A stretch of 64,000 nt of DNA. It comes from Candidatus Bathyarchaeota archaeon. GTDB lineage: Archaea; Thermoproteota; Bathyarchaeia; Bathyarchaeales; Bathycorpusculaceae. Within the stretch, counting starts at the first letter, position 1. Each line of letters starts with the position of its first letter. The stretch spans positions 64,001-128,000 of the forward strand of contig CAWDYC010000004.1 in assembly GCA_963806535.1 (NCBI GenBank). The letters run 5' to 3'. Below, in pieces: positions 1 through 17,231 of the stretch. The position numbers were made by a program, and so were the translations under genes. The notes beneath the pieces were generated by a model. That model was not told the origin of the DNA, did no database searches, and saw nothing but the letters and a program-made list of their open reading frames with translations.

Positions 1-210
1 ATGGAGAGCGGAGATTTTCTTACCTACATGCTAACAGCTAAAGGTGACATCCGCGCAGACATCATAAGTGGACAATTCAGTTGCGGAATAAATGACGATA
101 CAGATGCTAAAAGAGACCTATTAATTGACCAACAATTTTTAGAACTTGAAGCAATTAAAGAAAAGCGCAAAAAAGAGTTTGCAGAAAAGGCGCTATCAAA
201 CCATGATTAA
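1..210 (+). CDS. Hypothetical protein (possibly 5'-partial)
   Basis: ORF track; overlaps start of next ORF. Confidence 0.5.
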   Translation: MESGDFLTYMLTAKGDIRADIISGQFSCGINDDTDAKRDLLIDQQFLELEAIKEKRKKEFAEKALSNHD

Positions 211-307
211 CTGTGTCGTATGTAACTCTCAATTTGTGCCGATTGAGGGAGAAGATGTTTGCTCAAAATGTCGGCATGATTTCCGAGAGTTTGTTAAATC
301 TTGGTAA
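203..307 (+). CDS. 34-aa zinc-finger microprotein
   Basis: Hand translation MINCVVCNSQFVPIEGEDVCSKCRHDFREFVKSW, two CxxC pairs. Confidence 0.6.
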   Translation: MINCVVCNSQFVPIEGEDVCSKCRHDFREFVKSW

Positions 308-325
308 TCTTTAAGCTGTGAGATT

Positions 326-526
326 ATGACATACGAACAAGTAGTAAATCATAAAAAAGACCCTATAGAACATGTTAGAAATTTAGAATATTGTCCCAAG
401 TGCGGACGTACATTAATGGAACTGGATTTGAATGCTCCAAACGGAATCATAAACGACAAAAACGATGAGTTCCCATCTCTTAGATGTACAAGCTGCGGTT
501 TTGTAATCGCTCCAAAAATTTACTAG
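326..526 (+). CDS. Zinc-ribbon protein
   Basis: CPKC...CTSC. Confidence 0.65.
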   Translation: MTYEQVVNHKKDPIEHVRNLEYCPKCGRTLMELDLNAPNGIINDKNDEFPSLRCTSCGFVIAPKIY

Positions 527-537
527 GTTGATAAAAC

Positions 538-1078
538 ATGACTGAAAATTTTGATAATCCCAATAAAGTAACAATTAAGGTGGACACCTCATTAATTGAG
601 GAAAAATTTGAGGCTAGTAGAAGCTTTGCTTCAAAAGGAAGTTGATGAATTGAAAGAGTACAAATTGCAATCACGTAAAAGCGCTTTATTACCCAAATAC
701 CAGGATGAAGCAACAATTCAAAACATTGATACACTAGAAGCAATAAGCGAAAAAGAAAGGTTAGAACAACAATCAATTCCTAAAAAAGTATATGGTAACG
801 TACCGCCAAATTCAACTCAAGGCGGTCAAGGCGCTCCACAGAAAGGTTTTGAATCATACCCAGAAATGTATCTTAGCTTAAAAAATAAAGAAGCCATTGG
901 AGACCCAGAAAGCAAAGCAATTCTTGATAAGATGTTTGGTAAAATGCTTCAAGAAACCAAACAGTCAGGTATGCCCCTTAACATAGGTGACTTATCAGGT
1001 TTTAGCGACTTACCACTATCTCAATTACTGACAGAAAATTTTAGGTCAAAAATAAAACTATCAGGTGTTTTAGAATGA
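538..1078 (+). CDS. Hypothetical coiled-coil protein (start 538 needs one indel in A-run near 602; track ORF 596-1078)
   Basis: ATG at 538 just after previous stop; heptad-like L/E/K-rich segment. Confidence 0.55.
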
Positions 1079-1449
1079 AAGATATGAATGGAAAATATTA
1101 TATAAACTCGGTTGATGCACAAAACAATCAATGTAAAGATTACGCGCTTGAAAAGCATGGTTGGGTGGAAAGTTTTTCATCCTATGTTGTCATTGAGGGT
1201 GAAACTCCAGTCTGGATTCCAGAGAAAGGTTTTCCTTCAAAGTTGCGGCAGAAATCTAGCTATTTGAAACGCGTCTTTTCTGTTTCTGCTCCTAAATGCC
1301 CAGTTTGCGCCGAGAAAGCCGAAAGAAAATTAATTAAAACGGCTGACTGTGCAAGGCTCAGAACGCTTTCATTGAAAACTGGTATCTACGTTCGATTTTT
1401 CTGTGGGGGTAGCAACGGCGGCGGCGATTTCGTAACTTGGCTTAGGTAA
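1075..1449 (+). CDS. Hypothetical Cys-containing protein
   Basis: ATGA overlap with upstream ORF; CPVC motif. Confidence 0.6.
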   Translation: MKDMNGKYYINSVDAQNNQCKDYALEKHGWVESFSSYVVIEGETPVWIPEKGFPSKLRQKSSYLKRVFSVSAPKCPVCAEKAERKLIKTADCARLRTLSLKTGIYVRFFCGGSNGGGDFVTWLR

Positions 1450-1623
1450 TACTGATTCACCATGCTATCATTTAATCAGTGAAACTTTAATCTCTAAAGA
1501 AGAAATTTTCAATTTGTATCTTGAAGGCAAAATAGATTGGATTCGTGATTTTGCAATTTGCTTGATGATAGAGGAAAGGTTAGGAATCAACTTATGACCT
1601 CTACAGTCTAAAAATTAACGGTT

Positions 1624-1740
1624 GCGGGGTAGTCAAGTTTCTTCAGCTATCCCGCGCCAAGTCCTTTCTCTTAAGCTGTAGGTAGGATTACGGCACATCG
1701 TCATACACCACCTTTTGCCGTAATTCCTACCTTAAGCTGT
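1624..1740. repeat. Two GC-rich hairpins, the second flanked by 10-bp direct repeats CTTAAGCTGT
   Basis: GCGGGGTAG 1624-1632 / CTATCCCGC 1647-1655; AGGTAGGATTACGGCA 1680-1695 / TGCCGTAATTCCTACCT 1716-1732; DRs at 1670-1679 and 1731-1740. Confidence 0.8.
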
Positions 1741-1778
1741 TGAAAAAATTGACTAATGTAAGACAAAAGAAATTAGAT

Positions 1779-1883
1779 ATGCCTAAAGATTCAACATGTC
1801 CTTATTGCGGAAATGAAATTAGCCCAGCTGAATTTAGGAACTTAGGCGTTTGTAAAACTTGCTCAATTTTGAATTTCAGTTAA
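1779..1883 (+). CDS. 34-aa zinc-finger microprotein
   Basis: Hand translation MPKDSTCPYCGNEISPAEFRNLGVCKTCSILNFS. Confidence 0.6.
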   Translation: MPKDSTCPYCGNEISPAEFRNLGVCKTCSILNFS

Positions 1884-1891
1884 TTTCGCGG

Positions 1892-2068
1892 TTATATATA
1901 CTCAAGTTGTTTACCGCACATAGGGCAAACTATTGGATATGTGGTTTGTTTCATCATTAATTCAAATGTGCAAAGAAAACATAAGTAAATTTGGCATTTA
2001 GGACAATACTTGAAGCCACCGCCAATGAATTTTCCACATGCGTCACATGGACGCGTTAAATCTACCAT
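1892..2068 (-). CDS. C4C4 RING-like zinc-binding protein
   Basis: C-x2-C-x10-C-x2-C-x4-C-x2-C-x14-C-x2-C with final CPMC. Confidence 0.65.
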   Translation of the reverse strand: MVDLTRPCDACGKFIGGGFKYCPKCQIYLCFLCTFELMMKQTTYPIVCPMCGKQLEYI

Positions 2069-2291
2069 GCACATTTTGGCATTTATATATCATTTAAATT
2101 AGGCGTTGAAACGATATTCTTGAGGAGCGGAGAGCTAAGTGAAAGTGAAAGAGTGGCAAAAAAGCAAATGGTGGAGAAGTTATGATAAAGTCAAATCTCT
2201 TGAACAATCAATTGATCTCTTAATGTAGTGCCTGAACCTACGAAAGGGTCAAAAACCTTTTTAGTAAAATCAATGTTTATAATATTTTAAG

Positions 2292-2365
2292 CAGGGGTGG
2301 CGGGATTTGAACCCACGTCATAGGCTTAGCATGCCAATAGTCTGTCCGAGCTAACCTACACCCCT
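2292..2365 (-). tRNA. Atypical tRNA-like gene, anticodon GCT (nominally Ser) with a 4-nt variable loop
   Basis: Cloverleaf: acceptor AGGGGTG/CACCCCT, D stem GGTT/GACT, anticodon arm TTGGC-ATGCTAA-GCCTA, T arm GTGGG-TTCAAAT-CCCGC, discriminator G; CCA not encoded. Confidence 0.8.
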
Positions 2366-2510
2366 GCATTTCTTCTATTTGAACTCTTTTTTTCAGTCCT
2401 TCTGACTAATTTAAGCGATATTGTGTTGGGATTATTTAAAACAACCGAAATTTGCAAAAAAAGCGCAAGAGAGCAAAAACTAAAAGCTGAATTGCTCATA
2501 CTCGTTATGC

Positions 2511-3020
2511 TTGGCAGGTTGGAGAGAGAAGGTATCATTGAAACTTGACGATAACTATCTTTTGAGTCTTTTCTGCGTGACAATCTTTCTAATTCTGTCA
2601 TATAACTTACTTTTGTTTTCAGAGTTAGGGTTACTTGTAATTCCAGCAACTTTTGTTTTATTTGGTTATGTTCTTACGCTCATTTCTGCAACAAGAGCGA
2701 TTTATCCACAAGTCAGGAATCATAAATCTTACAAAATGCTAATGCTATTTGATGTTACGGCACTTGCTCAAATAGTTAGAAAGAAAATGAATGAAGTAAC
2801 GGGAGAAGGAAGAAAACATCGGCAAGATGCGATGGTCTATGGTACTGGTCTGCTTCCTTTTAGTGCCTTTTTCATAGCTACTTCAACTGAGGAAAAGACA
2901 AACGCCTTTTATTTCATTTTTTCAATTTCTTGGATTCTGTTTGGCTTCTCTATTCTTTTAATTGGTTATGGTTTTTATGATTCTGAAAAGTGCAGAAAAT
3001 GGTTGCATATTGACAGTTAG
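2511..3020 (+). CDS. Hypothetical membrane protein (about 4 TM)
   Basis: Hydrophobic segments in ORF. Confidence 0.6.
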   Translation: MAGWREKVSLKLDDNYLLSLFCVTIFLILSYNLLLFSELGLLVIPATFVLFGYVLTLISATRAIYPQVRNHKSYKMLMLFDVTALAQIVRKKMNEVTGEGRKHRQDAMVYGTGLLPFSAFFIATSTEEKTNAFYFIFSISWILFGFSILLIGYGFYDSEKCRKWLHIDS

Positions 3021-3144
3021 AATCAAAAGCTTCAAGAAGAAAAATATTAGATGCAAAAACTTAAAATCGTATATCAAAAATTCATCAAATATAAATACTT
3101 AAACAGATAATATCGTGAAACTAACAAGATAGGGGTAGATAAAA

Positions 3145-3642
3145 TTGAAAAAATCCGTCTTACTAATTATTATTGGGCTATTGACAGTAATTTTATTTTC
3201 ATGTAGTGTACTAAGTGTAAATGCCTTACAATCGAATGAATGGAGTTGGACATATACTCTATCAAGCACAACGTATTATCAAGGAGATAGCGGAACTATC
3301 ACTATTACTTTTACAAGCAATTGTCCTGACCAATTGCAATTAAGTTCTTTAAGCGTTCAATTTGACTGGATGACAACACCAATCACTGAGACAGTGAATT
3401 CACCATACATTGCAACTGGCAATCAATATACTTTCTCTGCCATTAGTTTCAGCATTCCTTCCGATGCAACCGTAAAAATAAAATTAGGAATTATTTTTAG
3501 CTCGAAACCGCCTTATGTATTGCTTTTTGGTGTTTTTGCATGTATTTATAAGAAAAATATGGCAAAAAGCGTAATTATTCGAAGCAATTGTTTAAGTTCA
3601 TTCATATTTTCTATATTACACACTAGTTTAAGATGGAAGTGA
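3145..3642 (+). pseudogene. Secreted Ig-like protein, apparently truncated near 3473
   Basis: Signal peptide plus S/T-rich beta sequence, then run-on through promoter-like AT-rich DNA. Confidence 0.5.
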
Positions 3643-3646
3643 AAAA

Positions 3647-4686
3647 ATGAGCAACCAAAAACCGAAAGAAGCATTGAATTACAATTCATTGATAAAAAAA
3701 ATTGCTGAAAATGGGGATTTGTGCGTTTTAGGCATGAAAGGCTGTTGTAAAACGACTTTGTTAATGCACTTAGCGCGGACGATAAGAGAAGATAGCAAGA
3801 ACCGTTTAATCATATTTGAGACCTTCCCAAAATGGTGCAAGGAATTTGATAAAATAGCCTACATGACAATAAGAGACAGTGACATTCAAGAAAAAGAGAA
3901 TTTGCCGTTCTTGGAAGAAGACAAATCTTATATCATGTGGTCTAAGGATTTTACAGTTTCAAACGCTGAAGGAATAACGGAATTTCTGAAGACAAACAAA
4001 GACGTTCTTTTCTTAATCGAAGCTGAAGACATGGAGCGCATAAGCGCTTTCATGACGTTCATTATTTATAGCATCTACAGAAAGCAATACTTGAGAGCTA
4101 AAGCTGGAAACTTAGAGATCGTAATGAGAATTATTAGTTTATTTGTGAGGAAGCGCATAATTTACTTGATTCAACAGTTCTAGCTAAGAAGACTTTCAAC
4201 CGCTTAAGAAAGATGCAGGCGGAATTTAGAAACTTGAAAATGCATTTAATTTGTGTGACCCTTCGCTTACAGTCTCTTAGCCCTAAGATAAGAAGCACAA
4301 TGTCAATTTTATGCTCAAGAGTAAGCCTAGATGACTATCAGCTTAAAGTTCGTAATCTCTTAAGAAACAGCGAATACAGAGATGTTATTACAGAATTGCC
4401 AAAAGGTCAATTTGTCTTTCCAGAATTAGACCTTCTTTTGACTACAGAACCCTTTAAGCAAGTCGGCGCGCCTTATGAAGTTAAAGCACAGATTCAACAG
4501 TCACAACCACAAAAGAAAGTAGGCTTTTGGAAAGCTTTATGGAATTTCGAGAAAGCCAATTATGAAGCGGGCAAAAGAAAGTATGAAGCTACACACGGCA
4601 ATCGAGAACCCTTACAAAGTGAAGAAGAGCAAGAATCTGAAGACGAGGAAATGGACGATTTACTTCTTGGAGAAGTAGATGAATAA
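3647..4686 (+). CDS. FtsK/HerA-superfamily P-loop ATPase (one frameshift near 4120)
   Basis: Walker A-like GMKGCCKTT; in second frame Walker B ICEEAHNL and FRNLKMHLICVT (Arg-finger/sensor region); acidic C-terminus. Confidence 0.7.
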
Positions 4687-4887
4687 TTCAAGAGTTTTTT
4701 GTTACGTAACATTAAAAAAGGATGTATGAAGAAACATGAACCAAAACAACCAAAATAGAAAGCAGAATAGAAGGTAAAAGTATGATATTTGCTGAAGCAT
4801 CAAATATTAAAAACATAAATCTTTGCTTTAGAAATATCTTTAAATATAAAATTATTGGTGACTAAAGTGCACAGAAGGTTAACCTGT

Positions 4888-6516
4888 ATGCGAAGCGACG
4901 AAATAAAAAAAGGAATAGAAAAAGCGCCCCACCGAGCGCTCCTAAAATCATTAGGTTTACAAGACGATGACATAGCAAAGCCACTAATCGGTGTAGCAAA
5001 CAGCTACACAAACATCGTTCCTGGGCATATCCATCTCCGAACTATAGGTGAAGCTGTAAAAGAAGGCATCCTATCTGCAGGAGGAATACCATTCGAATTC
5101 AGCACAATCGCAGTATGCGATGGCATTGCAATGGGGCACGAAGGCATGCGTTACTCCCTACCTTCAAGAGAAATAATCGCTGACTCCGTAGAGATTATGC
5201 TTCAAGCCCATAGCTTAGACGGGCTGGTCATGATTTCAAATTGCGACAAAATCACCCCCGGCATGCTCATGGCAGCTGCAAGAGTCAACGTTCCATCTAT
5301 AATGGTTACAGGTGGACCAATGGCGGCAGGCCATCACCATGGGAAAAAAATAAGTTACTCAAATATGCCCGAAGCGCTTGGGCAAGTAGCCGCTGGAAGA
5401 ATGTCCAATGGTGAACTGCTTGAGATGGAAGAAAACGCTTGTCCAGGATGCGGTTCCTGTAGCGGAATGTTCACTGCAAACACGATGTCCTGTATGACCG
5501 AAGCACTTGGTTTGTCGTTGCCTTACTGCGCAACTTCTCTTGCAAATAGTGCATTCAAGCTTCGATTATCCAGAGCTACAGGCAAACAAATCATAAAACT
5601 AGTCAAAGATGACCTTAAACCTTCACAAATCCTGACCATGGAAGCCTTTGAAAATGCCATTGCACTGGATATGGCACTAGGAGGTTCAACCAACACAACT
5701 CTGCATCTGCCAGCCATCGCCAAAGAAGCAGGCTTAACTCTGCCGCTATCAACCTTTGATGCAATCGGCAGAAAAGTTCCCCACCTATGCAGTATGATTC
5801 CAAGCGGAGACTTTGCGCTTGAGGATTTGGATGCAGCAGGTGGAGTTCCAGCAGTTATGAATGAACTCAATGGTTTGCTTCACTTAAAACTACCCACCGT
5901 GTCAGGTAAAACTGTCGGCGAAAACATCAAAAACGCACAGGTTCTTGACCGAAATGTCATCCATTCCTTAAAAGACCCTGTTCACAAAGAAGGTGGCATC
6001 GCCATCTTAACGGGTAACCTCGCACCAAAGGGTTCAGTTATCAAGACTGCAGGTGTATCACCTAAAATGCAGAATCACACAGGTCCAGCCAAAGTCTATG
6101 ACTCAGAAAAAGAAGCCCTGACTGCTATCCGCGCCAACGAAATCAAACCAGGCGACGTTGTGGTCATTCGCTATGAGGGTCCCCGTGGCGGACCCGGTAT
6201 GCCTGAAATGCTATTTCCAACAGCAACCATCGCAGGGATGGGGCTTGCCGAAAGCGTTGCCTTAATCACGGACGGACGCTTCTCAGGCGCAACCCACGGC
6301 GGAAGCATCGGACACGTTGCCCCAGAAGCTTTCGATGGTGGTCCAATCGCGGTTCTCAAAAATGGAGACACAATAACTATCGACATTCCGAACCGAACTC
6401 TAAGAGTTGAGTTAACCGACAAAGAGCTAAACACACGTCTAGCAGCTTGGAAACCCAGATTACCAAAAATAACAAAAGGCATTTTGTCCAGATACAAGCC
6501 AATTTCAATTGAATAA
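4888..6516 (+). CDS. ilvD: Dihydroxy-acid dehydratase
   Basis: CDGIAMGH, NCDKITPG, CSGMFTANTM, YEGPRGGPGM, TDGRFSG motifs. Confidence 0.97.
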   Translation: MRSDEIKKGIEKAPHRALLKSLGLQDDDIAKPLIGVANSYTNIVPGHIHLRTIGEAVKEGILSAGGIPFEFSTIAVCDGIAMGHEGMRYSLPSREIIADSVEIMLQAHSLDGLVMISNCDKITPGMLMAAARVNVPSIMVTGGPMAAGHHHGKKISYSNMPEALGQVAAGRMSNGELLEMEENACPGCGSCSGMFTANTMSCMTEALGLSLPYCATSLANSAFKLRLSRATGKQIIKLVKDDLKPSQILTMEAFENAIALDMALGGSTNTTLHLPAIAKEAGLTLPLSTFDAIGRKVPHLCSMIPSGDFALEDLDAAGGVPAVMNELNGLLHLKLPTVSGKTVGENIKNAQVLDRNVIHSLKDPVHKEGGIAILTGNLAPKGSVIKTAGVSPKMQNHTGPAKVYDSEKEALTAIRANEIKPGDVVVIRYEGPRGGPGMPEMLFPTATIAGMGLAESVALITDGRFSGATHGGSIGHVAPEAFDGGPIAVLKNGDTITIDIPNRTLRVELTDKELNTRLAAWKPRLPKITKGILSRYKPISIE

Positions 6517-14607: not shown

Positions 14608-14705
14608 TTTGCGCCGACACGATAAAGATATGCTGGCGCTTTTAATTTTTTGCATTTTATGCCATTACTTATTATGTTTATTAAAAACGCTGTTTCTTTT
14701 TTAGT

Positions 14706-14990
14706 TTGGATCGCTGGAGGAAAAAACGGGTGGACGCAGCAATTTTTTATTCACTTGGCGTGGCGTTAATTGCTGTTGGAATAATCATTATTGTTGTAGC
14801 AATCATTTTAGCGTCGATGCGTGGTGCTGGGAAGGGAAAGGTGAAGGGTGCAGGTGTAATTATGATTGGTCCTGTGCCGATAATTTTTGGAACAGACAAA
14901 AAATCGGTCAAAACCGTTTTGGTGCTCGCTTTAGCCCTTACTGTAGCTGTGATTATTGCCATGGTAATTTTCTATTGGCTATTGAGGTAG
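14706..14990 (+). CDS. DUF131 (TIGR00304) membrane protein
   Basis: GAGVIMIGPVPIIFGT signature. Confidence 0.85.
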   Translation: MDRWRKKRVDAAIFYSLGVALIAVGIIIIVVAIILASMRGAGKGKVKGAGVIMIGPVPIIFGTDKKSVKTVLVLALALTVAVIIAMVIFYWLLR

Positions 14991-17122: not shown

Positions 17123-17231
17123 GCCGGGGTAGCCTAGCCTGGCTAGGGCGCCAGACTCATAATCTGGAGTTTGTAAGGGGCAAGCGCCTTACGACCAGAA
17201 GTCACGGGCTCGAATCCCGTTCCCGGCACCA
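17123..17231 (+). tRNA. tRNA-Met(CAT), elongator type, 31-nt intron at position 45/46 (17170-17200), CCA encoded
   Basis: Acceptor GCCGGGG/TCCCGGC, anticodon arm CCAGA-CTCATAA-TCTGG intact; intron removal restores variable loop AGGTC. Confidence 0.9.

Follow-up and report, generated by a model that had tools for sequence, protein, structure and literature searches.

The locus examined here raises the question of which amino acid is carried by a transfer RNA (tRNA) whose body and anticodon disagree. The gene lies on an inserted element at the left end of a stretch of 64,000 nucleotides (nt) from a Candidatus Bathyarchaeota archaeon, hereafter the window, which covers bases 64001-128000 of contig 4 in a 2.95-Mb assembly of 12 contigs. 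It occupies the minus strand at 2292..2365. Its anticodon, GCU, reads the codons AGC and AGU (AGY), while the long variable arm of serine tRNAs is missing and the nucleotides that specify arginine are present. We favor, at a probability of about one half, the reading that this is a functional element-borne tRNA, predicted to be charged by the arginyl-tRNA synthetase (ArgRS) of the host, which would read AGY codons alongside tRNA-Ser(GCU) and cause serine-to-arginine mistranslation.

ARAGORN, which calls no other tRNA in the window, reports a tRNA-Ser(gct) at 2291-2365. Rfam family RF00005 scores 55.2 bits here against a gathering threshold of 29 (E = 3.6e-9, whole window against all 4227 Rfam families), a value far above chance that identifies a real tRNA gene. 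Parsed against nine other members of the class described below, the gene is a class I (short-arm) cloverleaf of 74 nt running from A1 (2365) to U72 (2293) and G73 (2292). The acceptor stem AGGGGUG/CACCCCU, which includes A1-U72, is followed by U8 and A9, by a D stem GGUU/GACU with the D loop AGCUCGGACA (A20 at 2345), and by A26. In the anticodon stem, UUGGC/GCCUA, the 27:43 pair is formed and U28 faces U42 (2336/2322); the loop reads A32 U33 G34 C35 U36 A37 A38, with GCU at 2330-2328. A 4-nt variable loop, UGAC, and a T arm GUGGG-UUCAAAU-CCCGC complete the molecule, and CCA is not encoded. The universal tertiary positions are all in place (U8, A14, G18, G19, A21, U33, G53-C56, A58 and C61).

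The first-pass annotation of this DNA had described a full minus-strand cloverleaf with GCT, U33, A37, A38, G73, A32, the U28xU42 mismatch, A1-U72 and the 4-nt TGAC loop, and each of these features is indeed found in the sequence. The acceptor extended to 9 bp, which it had also singled out, turned out to be commonplace: the leader bases G(-2) and C(-1) (2366..2367, minus strand) can pair with G73 and C74 (2292-2291), but -1:73 pairing is possible in 28 of 43 host tRNAs and the double pairing -1:73 plus -2:74 in 15 of them. A selenocysteine tRNA or an allo-tRNA of the long-acceptor form was rejected, the T stem having 5 bp, the variable loop 4 nt, and the extra pairs being made of leader and trailer bases. 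A tRNA pseudogene was likewise set aside for a gene of full length with a single internal mismatch, and recent duplication of a host tRNA was excluded because none of the other 43 host tRNAs matches it at more than 55/75 bases.

The host already possesses an ordinary reader of these codons. Among the 44 tRNA genes that ARAGORN finds in the genome, which include all five arginine anticodons, is a normal class II tRNA-Ser(GCU) of 87 nt with a variable arm of about 17 nt (contig 11, 164111-164197); the window tRNA is therefore an extra AGC/AGU reader. All serine tRNAs of the host have the long arm, measure at least 87 nt without introns, and bear G73 as discriminator. The window tRNA shares GCU, A37 and G73 with the class II tRNA-Ser(GCU) but differs in its D arm and in its variable region (4 versus about 17 nt), so that it is, as first proposed, not a canonical tRNA-Ser. 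A 4-nt variable loop is common among the class I tRNAs of this host (Glu, Gln, Pro, Gly, Asp and His).

The window tRNA belongs to a class that recurs in other genomes. When 101 related genomes were searched at the DNA level without regard to the anticodon, two long homologs were retrieved, in genomes G026 (83% identity) and G013 (77%), both short-armed and both with the anticodon GCT; the next-best matches were the tRNA-Gly(GCC) of the genus core. A strict pattern, allowing no mismatch, occurred in 3 of 120 genus genomes (the window genome, G026 and G013) and, among 185,579 species represented by a single genome each, in the same two contigs of Bathyarchaeia as well as in an Archaeoglobaceae metagenome-assembled genome (MAG). 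A looser pattern (TGCT-N-A, 12-13 N, GGTTCRAATCC) was run on two overlapping draws of 401 genomes, one from the class and one from the order, and matched 12 and 18 genomes, respectively, with 3 and 6 hits for a reversed-pattern control. Inspection of these matches identified real short-arm GCU tRNAs in G090, G489, G125, G142, G637, G660 and G335, and the remainder as coding sequence or attachment-site-like tRNA 3' fragments. In the order draw, short-arm GCU tRNAs were tallied in 8 of the 401 genomes. All class members have tRNA covariance scores between 41 and 61.5 bits, and ten of them (nine from Bathyarchaeia and the Archaeoglobaceae MAG) were parsed position by position; the G335 gene, with an insert in its D loop, was left out. 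A long-arm tRNA-Ser(GCU) was found in 8 of 10 carrier genomes, with no clear match among these ten in G637 (89% complete) and G335 (87% complete).

Comparison of the ten members revealed a well-kept structure. Standard pairs occupy 20 of the 21 stem positions in nine or all ten of the members, and every stem pair except the invariant G52:C62 and G53:C61 and the exception 27:43 occurs as two to five different pair types. The acceptor stems are almost wholly different in sequence yet paired, with a single G-G in G142 as the sole exception. These compensatory changes argue against decay and suggest that the structure of the class is under selection; the earlier suggestion of a decaying, anticodon-shifted tRNA, to be recognized by unconstrained decay among homologs, is thus at odds with ten tRNAs that retain all stem pairs but 27:43. 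This last pair is open in 7 of the 10 members but in only 3 of the 82 ordinary class I tRNAs used for comparison, and 28:42, open in the window tRNA, is open in none of the 82. Since such mismatches at the base of the anticodon stem recur here and are rare in ordinary tRNAs, a weak stem base appears to be a trait of the class and not scattered decay.

The amino acid identity was approached through the nucleotides that synthetases recognize, using as reference 82 class I tRNAs from three Bathyarchaeia genomes. G18, G19, A20, C35, U36 and A38 are present in all ten members and A37 in nine, while the discriminator is G73 in seven, A73 in two and U73 in one. Among the host tRNAs, A20 is found only in the five arginine tRNAs and the initiator; in the reference set, the position-20 column holds A in 11/11 arginine tRNAs versus 6/71 others. 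All 11 reference arginine tRNAs also have G73, and those with U36 have A37. In their review, Giege and Eriani (PMC9976931) list A20, C35, U/G36 and A/G73 as the arginine identity set, and Igloi (PMC8975779) states that the A20 requirement holds in archaea, citing the Pyrococcus horikoshii enzyme. Position 34 is absent from the determinant list, and a GCU anticodon would therefore present ArgRS with the same C35-U36 as CCU or UCU. The window tRNA carries the whole set (A20, C35 with U36, and G73).

The resemblance to canonical archaeal tRNA-Arg extends to A37, to the short-arm (class I) architecture and to the D loop, which follows AGC-N-CGGA in both. In contrast, the combination of G34 with U36 reads AGY, which is not an arginine codon, instead of AGR or CGN, and we have therefore not filed the gene as an ordinary tRNA-Arg. 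It also departs from the host tRNA-Arg in its unlike acceptor, its 4-nt variable loop (5 nt in the host) and its mismatch at the anticodon-stem base.

Two analyses that ignore the anticodon point in the same direction. A metagenome pattern restricted to positions on which the three earliest-found members agree, and placing no constraint on any part of the anticodon loop, matched at least 120 stretches, and all matches listed were tRNA-Arg (CCG 72, GCG 47, TCG 1), although the pattern includes GGA, with A20, and is not independent of the A20 argument. The body was also scored apart from the anticodon, as had been suggested, with position profiles for each isotype derived from the 82 references, anticodon masked, as a stand-in for the tRNAscan-SE isotype models (71/73 correct in leave-one-out). 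For the window tRNA, arginine came first, weakly and with negative scores (-17.4 versus -25.8 for the runner-up, proline). Arginine was the top isotype for 6 of the 10 members, and for 7 when the acceptor was also masked.

Several observations weigh against this assignment. Arginine ranked no higher than second, and as low as fifth, in G125, G142, G660 and the Archaeoglobaceae member, the profile scores are mostly negative, and the bodies of the class are far from the host tRNA-Arg. In simple sequence identity, the window tRNA matches Gly, His and Pro tRNAs as well as it does those for Arg. A maximum-likelihood tree was poorly resolved, with only G660 beside Arg(CCU) and the group of five to which the window tRNA belongs clustering near initiator-Met and Gln rows, outside Arg. 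In view of the negative profiles, the identity ties and the tree, we claim the arginine identity set for the class and not membership in the tRNA-Arg family. Moreover, G73 is the serine discriminator too in this genome, and the archaeal arginine determinants lack mutagenesis tests according to a table in the review (PMC9976931). The conservation of GCU is partly by construction, 8 of the 10 members having been found with a pattern that contains GCT, and each member has its blemish, such as U28xU42 in the window tRNA, C33 in G026 and G37 in G013. Mobile genes lie near only 4 of 11 members, the G637 and G660 tRNAs being flanked by housekeeping genes within 1.5 kb. The energy fold of the bare window tRNA differs from the cloverleaf (z = -1.86; 10 of 200 shuffles fold equally well). 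A single-sequence energy fold that misses the cloverleaf is usual for tRNAs; as it barely beats shuffles here, the case for the cloverleaf rests on the covariance score and the comparative pairs. Lastly, proteome-wide serine-to-arginine errors should be costly, and any benefit to the element is something that we infer.

A search for the enzymes that might charge the tRNA showed that 8 of the 10 carriers searched encode just one ArgRS reading frame; in G489 a second, partial match was seen, and no ArgRS was found in G090. Each of five carriers encodes one ordinary seryl-tRNA synthetase (SerRS) with the N-terminal arm domain, which grips the long variable arm, and no second or methanogen-type SerRS scored above the cut-off in the carriers examined. 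A dedicated paralog of either enzyme was not found in the carriers searched, nor did a protein family search of the open reading frames (ORFs) of the inserted island return an aminoacyl-tRNA synthetase gene. Under the favored reading none would be needed, because C35 and U36 already suit the normal ArgRS.

Charging with another amino acid, together with recoding of AGY, had been among the options put forward in the first-pass annotation. The charging part is the option that fits best, given the arginine marks A20, C35, U36 and G73. The recoding part is not supported for the element's own genes, in which AGY falls at serine-type sites and the catalytic arginines of the recombinase motifs use normal arginine codons. 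In one of the G090 integrases, a position of the box I motif that is usually serine or glycine is an AGY serine; in a membrane-like protein of the window's island, AGY serines occur within a hydrophobic segment resembling a signal peptide and within strands rich in Ser and Thr. On these limited data, AGY decoded as arginine in element genes was rejected. AGY accounts for 4.0% of island codons versus 2.6% in long host ORFs, a difference that fits the low GC content of the island.

The mechanism that we propose would begin with transcription of the gene from its own TATA-like promoter. Host enzymes would then trim the transcript and add CCA, the single ArgRS of the host would charge the product with arginine, and the charged tRNA would compete with tRNA-Ser(GCU) at AGY codons, leading to low-level substitution of serine by arginine. 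A promoter-like CGCTTAAATTA resembling the B recognition element (BRE) and TATA box is located at 2407..2417 (minus strand), 41 nt upstream of tRNA position 1. Many host tRNA genes have near-identical GCTTAAATT-type motifs 23-26 nt upstream, and the wider spacing at the window tRNA would imply a leader of about 17 nt; the G026, G637 and Archaeoglobaceae genes have TATA-like boxes at the usual spacing. Downstream, on the same strand, two T runs (2269-2266 and 2255-2251, together spanning 2251..2269) are possible archaeal termination signals. Both the promoter and the terminator are proposed from sequence only. As for the final step, the recurrent mismatch at the base of the anticodon stem may damp the activity of the tRNA. 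Changes at 27-43 alter decoding in E. coli. The damping of mistranslating tRNAs in yeast (PMC6827378) suggests that a weak 27:43 or 28:42 pair may limit activity.

The gene lies inside a break in synteny. The whole island spans contig 4, 60962-68839, about 7.9 kb, which corresponds to window -3038 to 4839 and places 1..4839 within the window. Its GC content is 0.30-0.38 versus 0.40-0.50 in the flanks. Of 11 loci examined in relatives, five (G012, G011, G002, G010 and G001) have leuA and ilvD as divergent neighbors without the insert; the other six gave no leuA match within the 1.5-kb flank fetched. Homology to the relatives ends at 60961 of contig 4 and resumes at 68840. The island is bounded by imperfect direct repeats of 17-19 nt, the right copy TATCTTTAAATATAAAATT, located by a repeat search, at 4835..4853 (plus strand) and the left copy TAGCCTTAAATATAAAGTT outside the window, at contig 4, 60943-60961 (L031 14943-14961); the relatives have a single stretch of about 14 nt that aligns to both sides. 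The tRNA sits within the insert, 2.5 kb from its right end. These data confirm that the gene is element-borne, as was initially stated, and that the element did not integrate into a tRNA. A product of an attachment site was rejected as well, as the genome has no partial copy of the tRNA, the island ends carry no repeat of its 3' part, and the island repeats are promoter-region sequence.

Other members also occur in mobile contexts. Two integrases surround the G090 gene, and IS240-type transposases lie beside the G335 and Archaeoglobaceae genes, two loci that share the insertion sequence (IS) transposase. On contig 47 of G335, 8 nt upstream of the GCU tRNA with the D-loop insert and beside the IS240-type transposase, ARAGORN alone calls a 93-nt long-arm tRNA with the anticodon UUA ("tRNA-Stop") and G73 (L248 6331-6423, minus strand); it lies outside the Rfam gathering list and could be a serine-type ochre suppressor.

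Homologs in viruses, which the first-pass annotation had envisaged, did not emerge clearly. Three narrow scans of viral contigs gave no GCU homolog. A broad scan returned at least 120 loci, and among the matches listed 53 lay inside ARAGORN tRNAs and 34 were called Ser-gct. These matches are heterogeneous, many being ssrA-like 3' fragments (prophage ends) or intron-bearing genes, but three IMG/VR contigs (L368, L370 and L400) carry compact short-arm cloverleaves that combine the anticodon GCU with a D loop of the GGA type. Another viral contig, L068, has a 73-nt tRNA that ARAGORN calls Ser(gga).

Among the rival explanations, a role outside decoding survives best, although we consider it unlikely. 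The tRNA, transcribed and perhaps also charged, could serve the element by sequestering ArgRS or an anticodon nuclease (of the host or of a rival), by donating its amino acid in a tRNA-dependent transfer, or by being a regulated "toxic RNA" that a partner repressor keeps in check. Use on the ribosome might be disfavored by the recurrent 27:43 mismatch, and defence-type genes are found in the vicinity: a TIR-domain gene on the G013 contig, AbiEii and a Cas4-like nuclease near the G090 gene, and a PIN/MazE pair located some 7 kb away from the window tRNA. However, no nuclease or transferase is consistently linked to the class, and nothing in the intact, A37-bearing anticodon loop prevents decoding. 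The repressor idea comes from a conserved ribbon-helix-helix (RHH)-like gene of 93-120 amino acids (aa) that precedes the tRNA in the same orientation, with a gap of 6-13 nt, only in G013, G090 and G489 (L054 252-614; L246 8139-8420, minus strand; L247 1589-1891), three genomes that belong to two families. The protein has at least 130 metagenomic homologs, some of which public sources name Arc/MetJ-type regulators, and one sub-threshold match to the VapB antitoxin; no viral relative was found for it. Against a functional pairing, the window's island has no RHH homolog, and in G008 and G117, where more divergent homologs mark the ends of elements, the adjacent tRNA is tRNA-Glu instead of a GCU tRNA. 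The RHH gene may accordingly be a mere end gene of an element family.

An improbable alternative is that the class is a neutral relic, namely a mobile-element tRNA-Arg of the GCG or YCU type whose anticodon has changed and which is inert or unexpressed and decaying. GCU is one change away from GCG, UCU or CCU, and each member has a small defect, the blemishes given above being joined by one stem mismatch each in G142 and G660. The distribution is sporadic, as the strict-pattern and order-draw counts indicate, the window tRNA is separated from its TATA-like motif by a longer distance than host tRNA genes are, and retention of the anticodon in two homologs at 77-83% identity is statistically not compelling. 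The mismatches, however, are not scattered: the stems are kept by many compensatory changes, the open 27:43 pair looks like a kept feature, and A20, A37 and A38 are retained even though the acceptor stems share almost nothing.

It is less probable still that the molecule remains a serine tRNA, charged with serine by the host SerRS or by another route despite its short arm and boosting AGY decoding. G73 would suit this explanation, as would the presence of short-arm GCU tRNAs in viral contigs, and a supply role would fit the higher AGY share of the island. Yet the carriers have one ordinary SerRS with the arm domain, the serine tRNAs of the host all have the long arm, and A20, invariant in the class and essentially arginine-specific in the reference set, has no serine-identity role. 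An artefact, whether an anticodon wrongly sequenced or assembled in an otherwise ordinary class I tRNA or a chimera formed at an attachment site, might be suspected in a metagenome-type assembly of 12 contigs with attachment-site-like tRNA 3' fragments in related genomes, but is very unlikely because the same anticodon sits on similar bodies in independent assemblies of other members, because the acceptor halves match in every member (but for the one G-G), unlike a recent chimera, and because the 3' part of the tRNA is repeated neither at the island ends nor elsewhere in the genome.

The remaining genes of the island give few clues to its nature. Two abutting ORFs, which look like a split integrase, have a weak tyrosine-recombinase match, in which the R...HxxR...Y residues are present. 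The plus strand carries a zinc-ribbon-like ORF of 66 aa with cysteine pairs (326..526; sub-threshold zinc-ribbon Pfam matches only) and two ORFs of 160 and 124 aa (596..1449) with no family above the cut-off. A second zinc-ribbon-like ORF of 60 aa, again with sub-threshold matches only, lies downstream of the tRNA on its strand (1892..2074, minus). Four ORFs of 169, 165, 178 and 157 aa occupy 2511..4686 (plus strand), with weak AAA/STAND matches and no family above the cut-off; two of them are membrane- or secreted-like and one has a degenerate P-loop-like motif. A PHROGs search with 11 island ORFs found nothing viral and one marginal zinc-ribbon match, and tblastx of the island against the loci of the ten other members gave no protein match at E 1e-6.

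To the right of the island, the host gene ilvD (dihydroxy-acid dehydratase; 4855..6516, plus strand; Pfam ILVD_EDD_N, 4.1e-138) is kept in 29 of the 31 genus genomes searched. To the left, just outside the window, the N-terminal part of leuA is in another frame than the rest (L031 approximately 14640-14960, contig 4, 60640-60960); the relatives read straight through, and leuA looks frameshifted or affected by an assembly error. Farther left, outside the island and about 7 kb from the tRNA, is the PIN-domain/MazE-type toxin-antitoxin pair (L031 12686-13289, minus strand). A ParA/NUBPL-type P-loop ATPase is split between L031 10342-10686 and 10767-11207 (plus strand; profile positions 1-69 and 111-245), which could reflect a frameshift or an assembly error.

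Other tRNA genes were noted in the course of the analysis. A second tRNA of the window, with the anticodon CAU (17123-17228, plus strand; Rfam 53.8 bits), was missed by ARAGORN; its variable region is interrupted by roughly 32 extra nt, likely a non-canonical intron, and has a match of equal score in G013 (contig 21, 18148-18253). Two tRNA-Gly(GCC) genes lie 1.7 kb apart on contig 8 of the window genome (46355-46431 and 48103-48180); the first, with an A/T-rich acceptor, is a genus core gene whose pattern occurs in most of the 120 genomes searched. Lone 3' fragments of tRNA-Ser(GGA) and tRNA-Arg(CCU) occur near the intact genes in L239 (G026, contig 174), L240 (G019, contig 13) and L251 (G031, contig 25) and resemble the traces of elements whose integration targets tRNA genes.

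To our knowledge, AGC and AGU stand for serine in every genetic code, and only a handful of systems, above all tRNA-ProX of actinomycetes, are known to have natural mistranslating tRNAs. In the cargo tRNAs described so far, the body agrees with the anticodon. Like the tRNAs encoded by viruses and elements for codon supply or evasion of anticodon nucleases, the window tRNA is an extra cargo gene, and its island is richer in AGN codons than the host; it differs in that its body and anticodon disagree while the element genes read AGY as serine. A close parallel is the tRNA-ProX/ProRSx system of Streptomyces and Kitasatospora (PMC11415595), which is also based on an accessory tRNA joining one identity to another anticodon, with structural oddities and a sporadic distribution. 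That tRNA has its own synthetase paralog, whereas most carriers of the GCU class (8 of 10) have a single ArgRS. It is moreover bacterial and substitutes proline for alanine, threonine or asparagine, whereas the window tRNA is archaeal, resides on an integrated element, would put arginine for serine and is known from sequence alone.

Anticodon/isotype disagreements are likewise known. The IPD cases of tRNAscan-SE 2.0 (PMC8450103), such as human tRNA-Leu-CAA-5-1 with a Met body and fungal Ser-UGA repeats with a Thr body, belong to the same category, with a short variable loop in place of the expected long arm and a body scoring as another isotype, but are single genes or repeat-derived pseudogenes, whereas the GCU class covaries in several archaeal lineages. 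A similar blurring of serine and arginine appears in mitochondrial rearrangements of the AGN box, where tRNA-Ser with GCU or UCU reads AGR and C35-U36 invites ArgRS (PMC9976931 and PMC4615739). That case is organellar and turns arginine codons into serine; here the predicted change is the opposite, from serine codons to arginine, in a free-living archaeon. The literature searched, which excludes subscription journals, yielded no arginine-type tRNA with a GCU anticodon and no AGY reassignment. While dual-identity tRNAs and anticodon/isotype disagreements are known (PMC11415595 and PMC8450103), we found no precedent for an arginine-marked tRNA with an AGY anticodon that recurs in archaea and is carried on an integrated element without its own synthetase.

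Tools that consider only the anticodon name these genes tRNA-Ser; even if the class were inert, it would provide a clean example for scoring isotype on the body as well as on the anticodon. A broader generalization, which we advance tentatively and consider doubtful, is that mobile elements of Bathyarchaeia, and perhaps those of other archaea as well as some viruses, carry an attenuated arginine-accepting AGY reader that uses the ordinary ArgRS and imposes ambiguous Ser/Arg decoding, with one subgroup maybe checked by the adjacent RHH repressor in a toxin-antitoxin-like arrangement where the tRNA is the toxin. If true, this would be the first natural case in which AGY has a meaning other than serine alone, and archaea would have their first mistranslating tRNA. 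Should ArgRS charge the class, the transfer of a single tRNA gene by a mobile element could be enough to render a sense codon ambiguous, with no need for a new enzyme because ArgRS ignores position 34. Such a system would bear on the evolution of split codon boxes, on the control of host translation by mobile elements and on the design of orthogonal and suppressor tRNAs.

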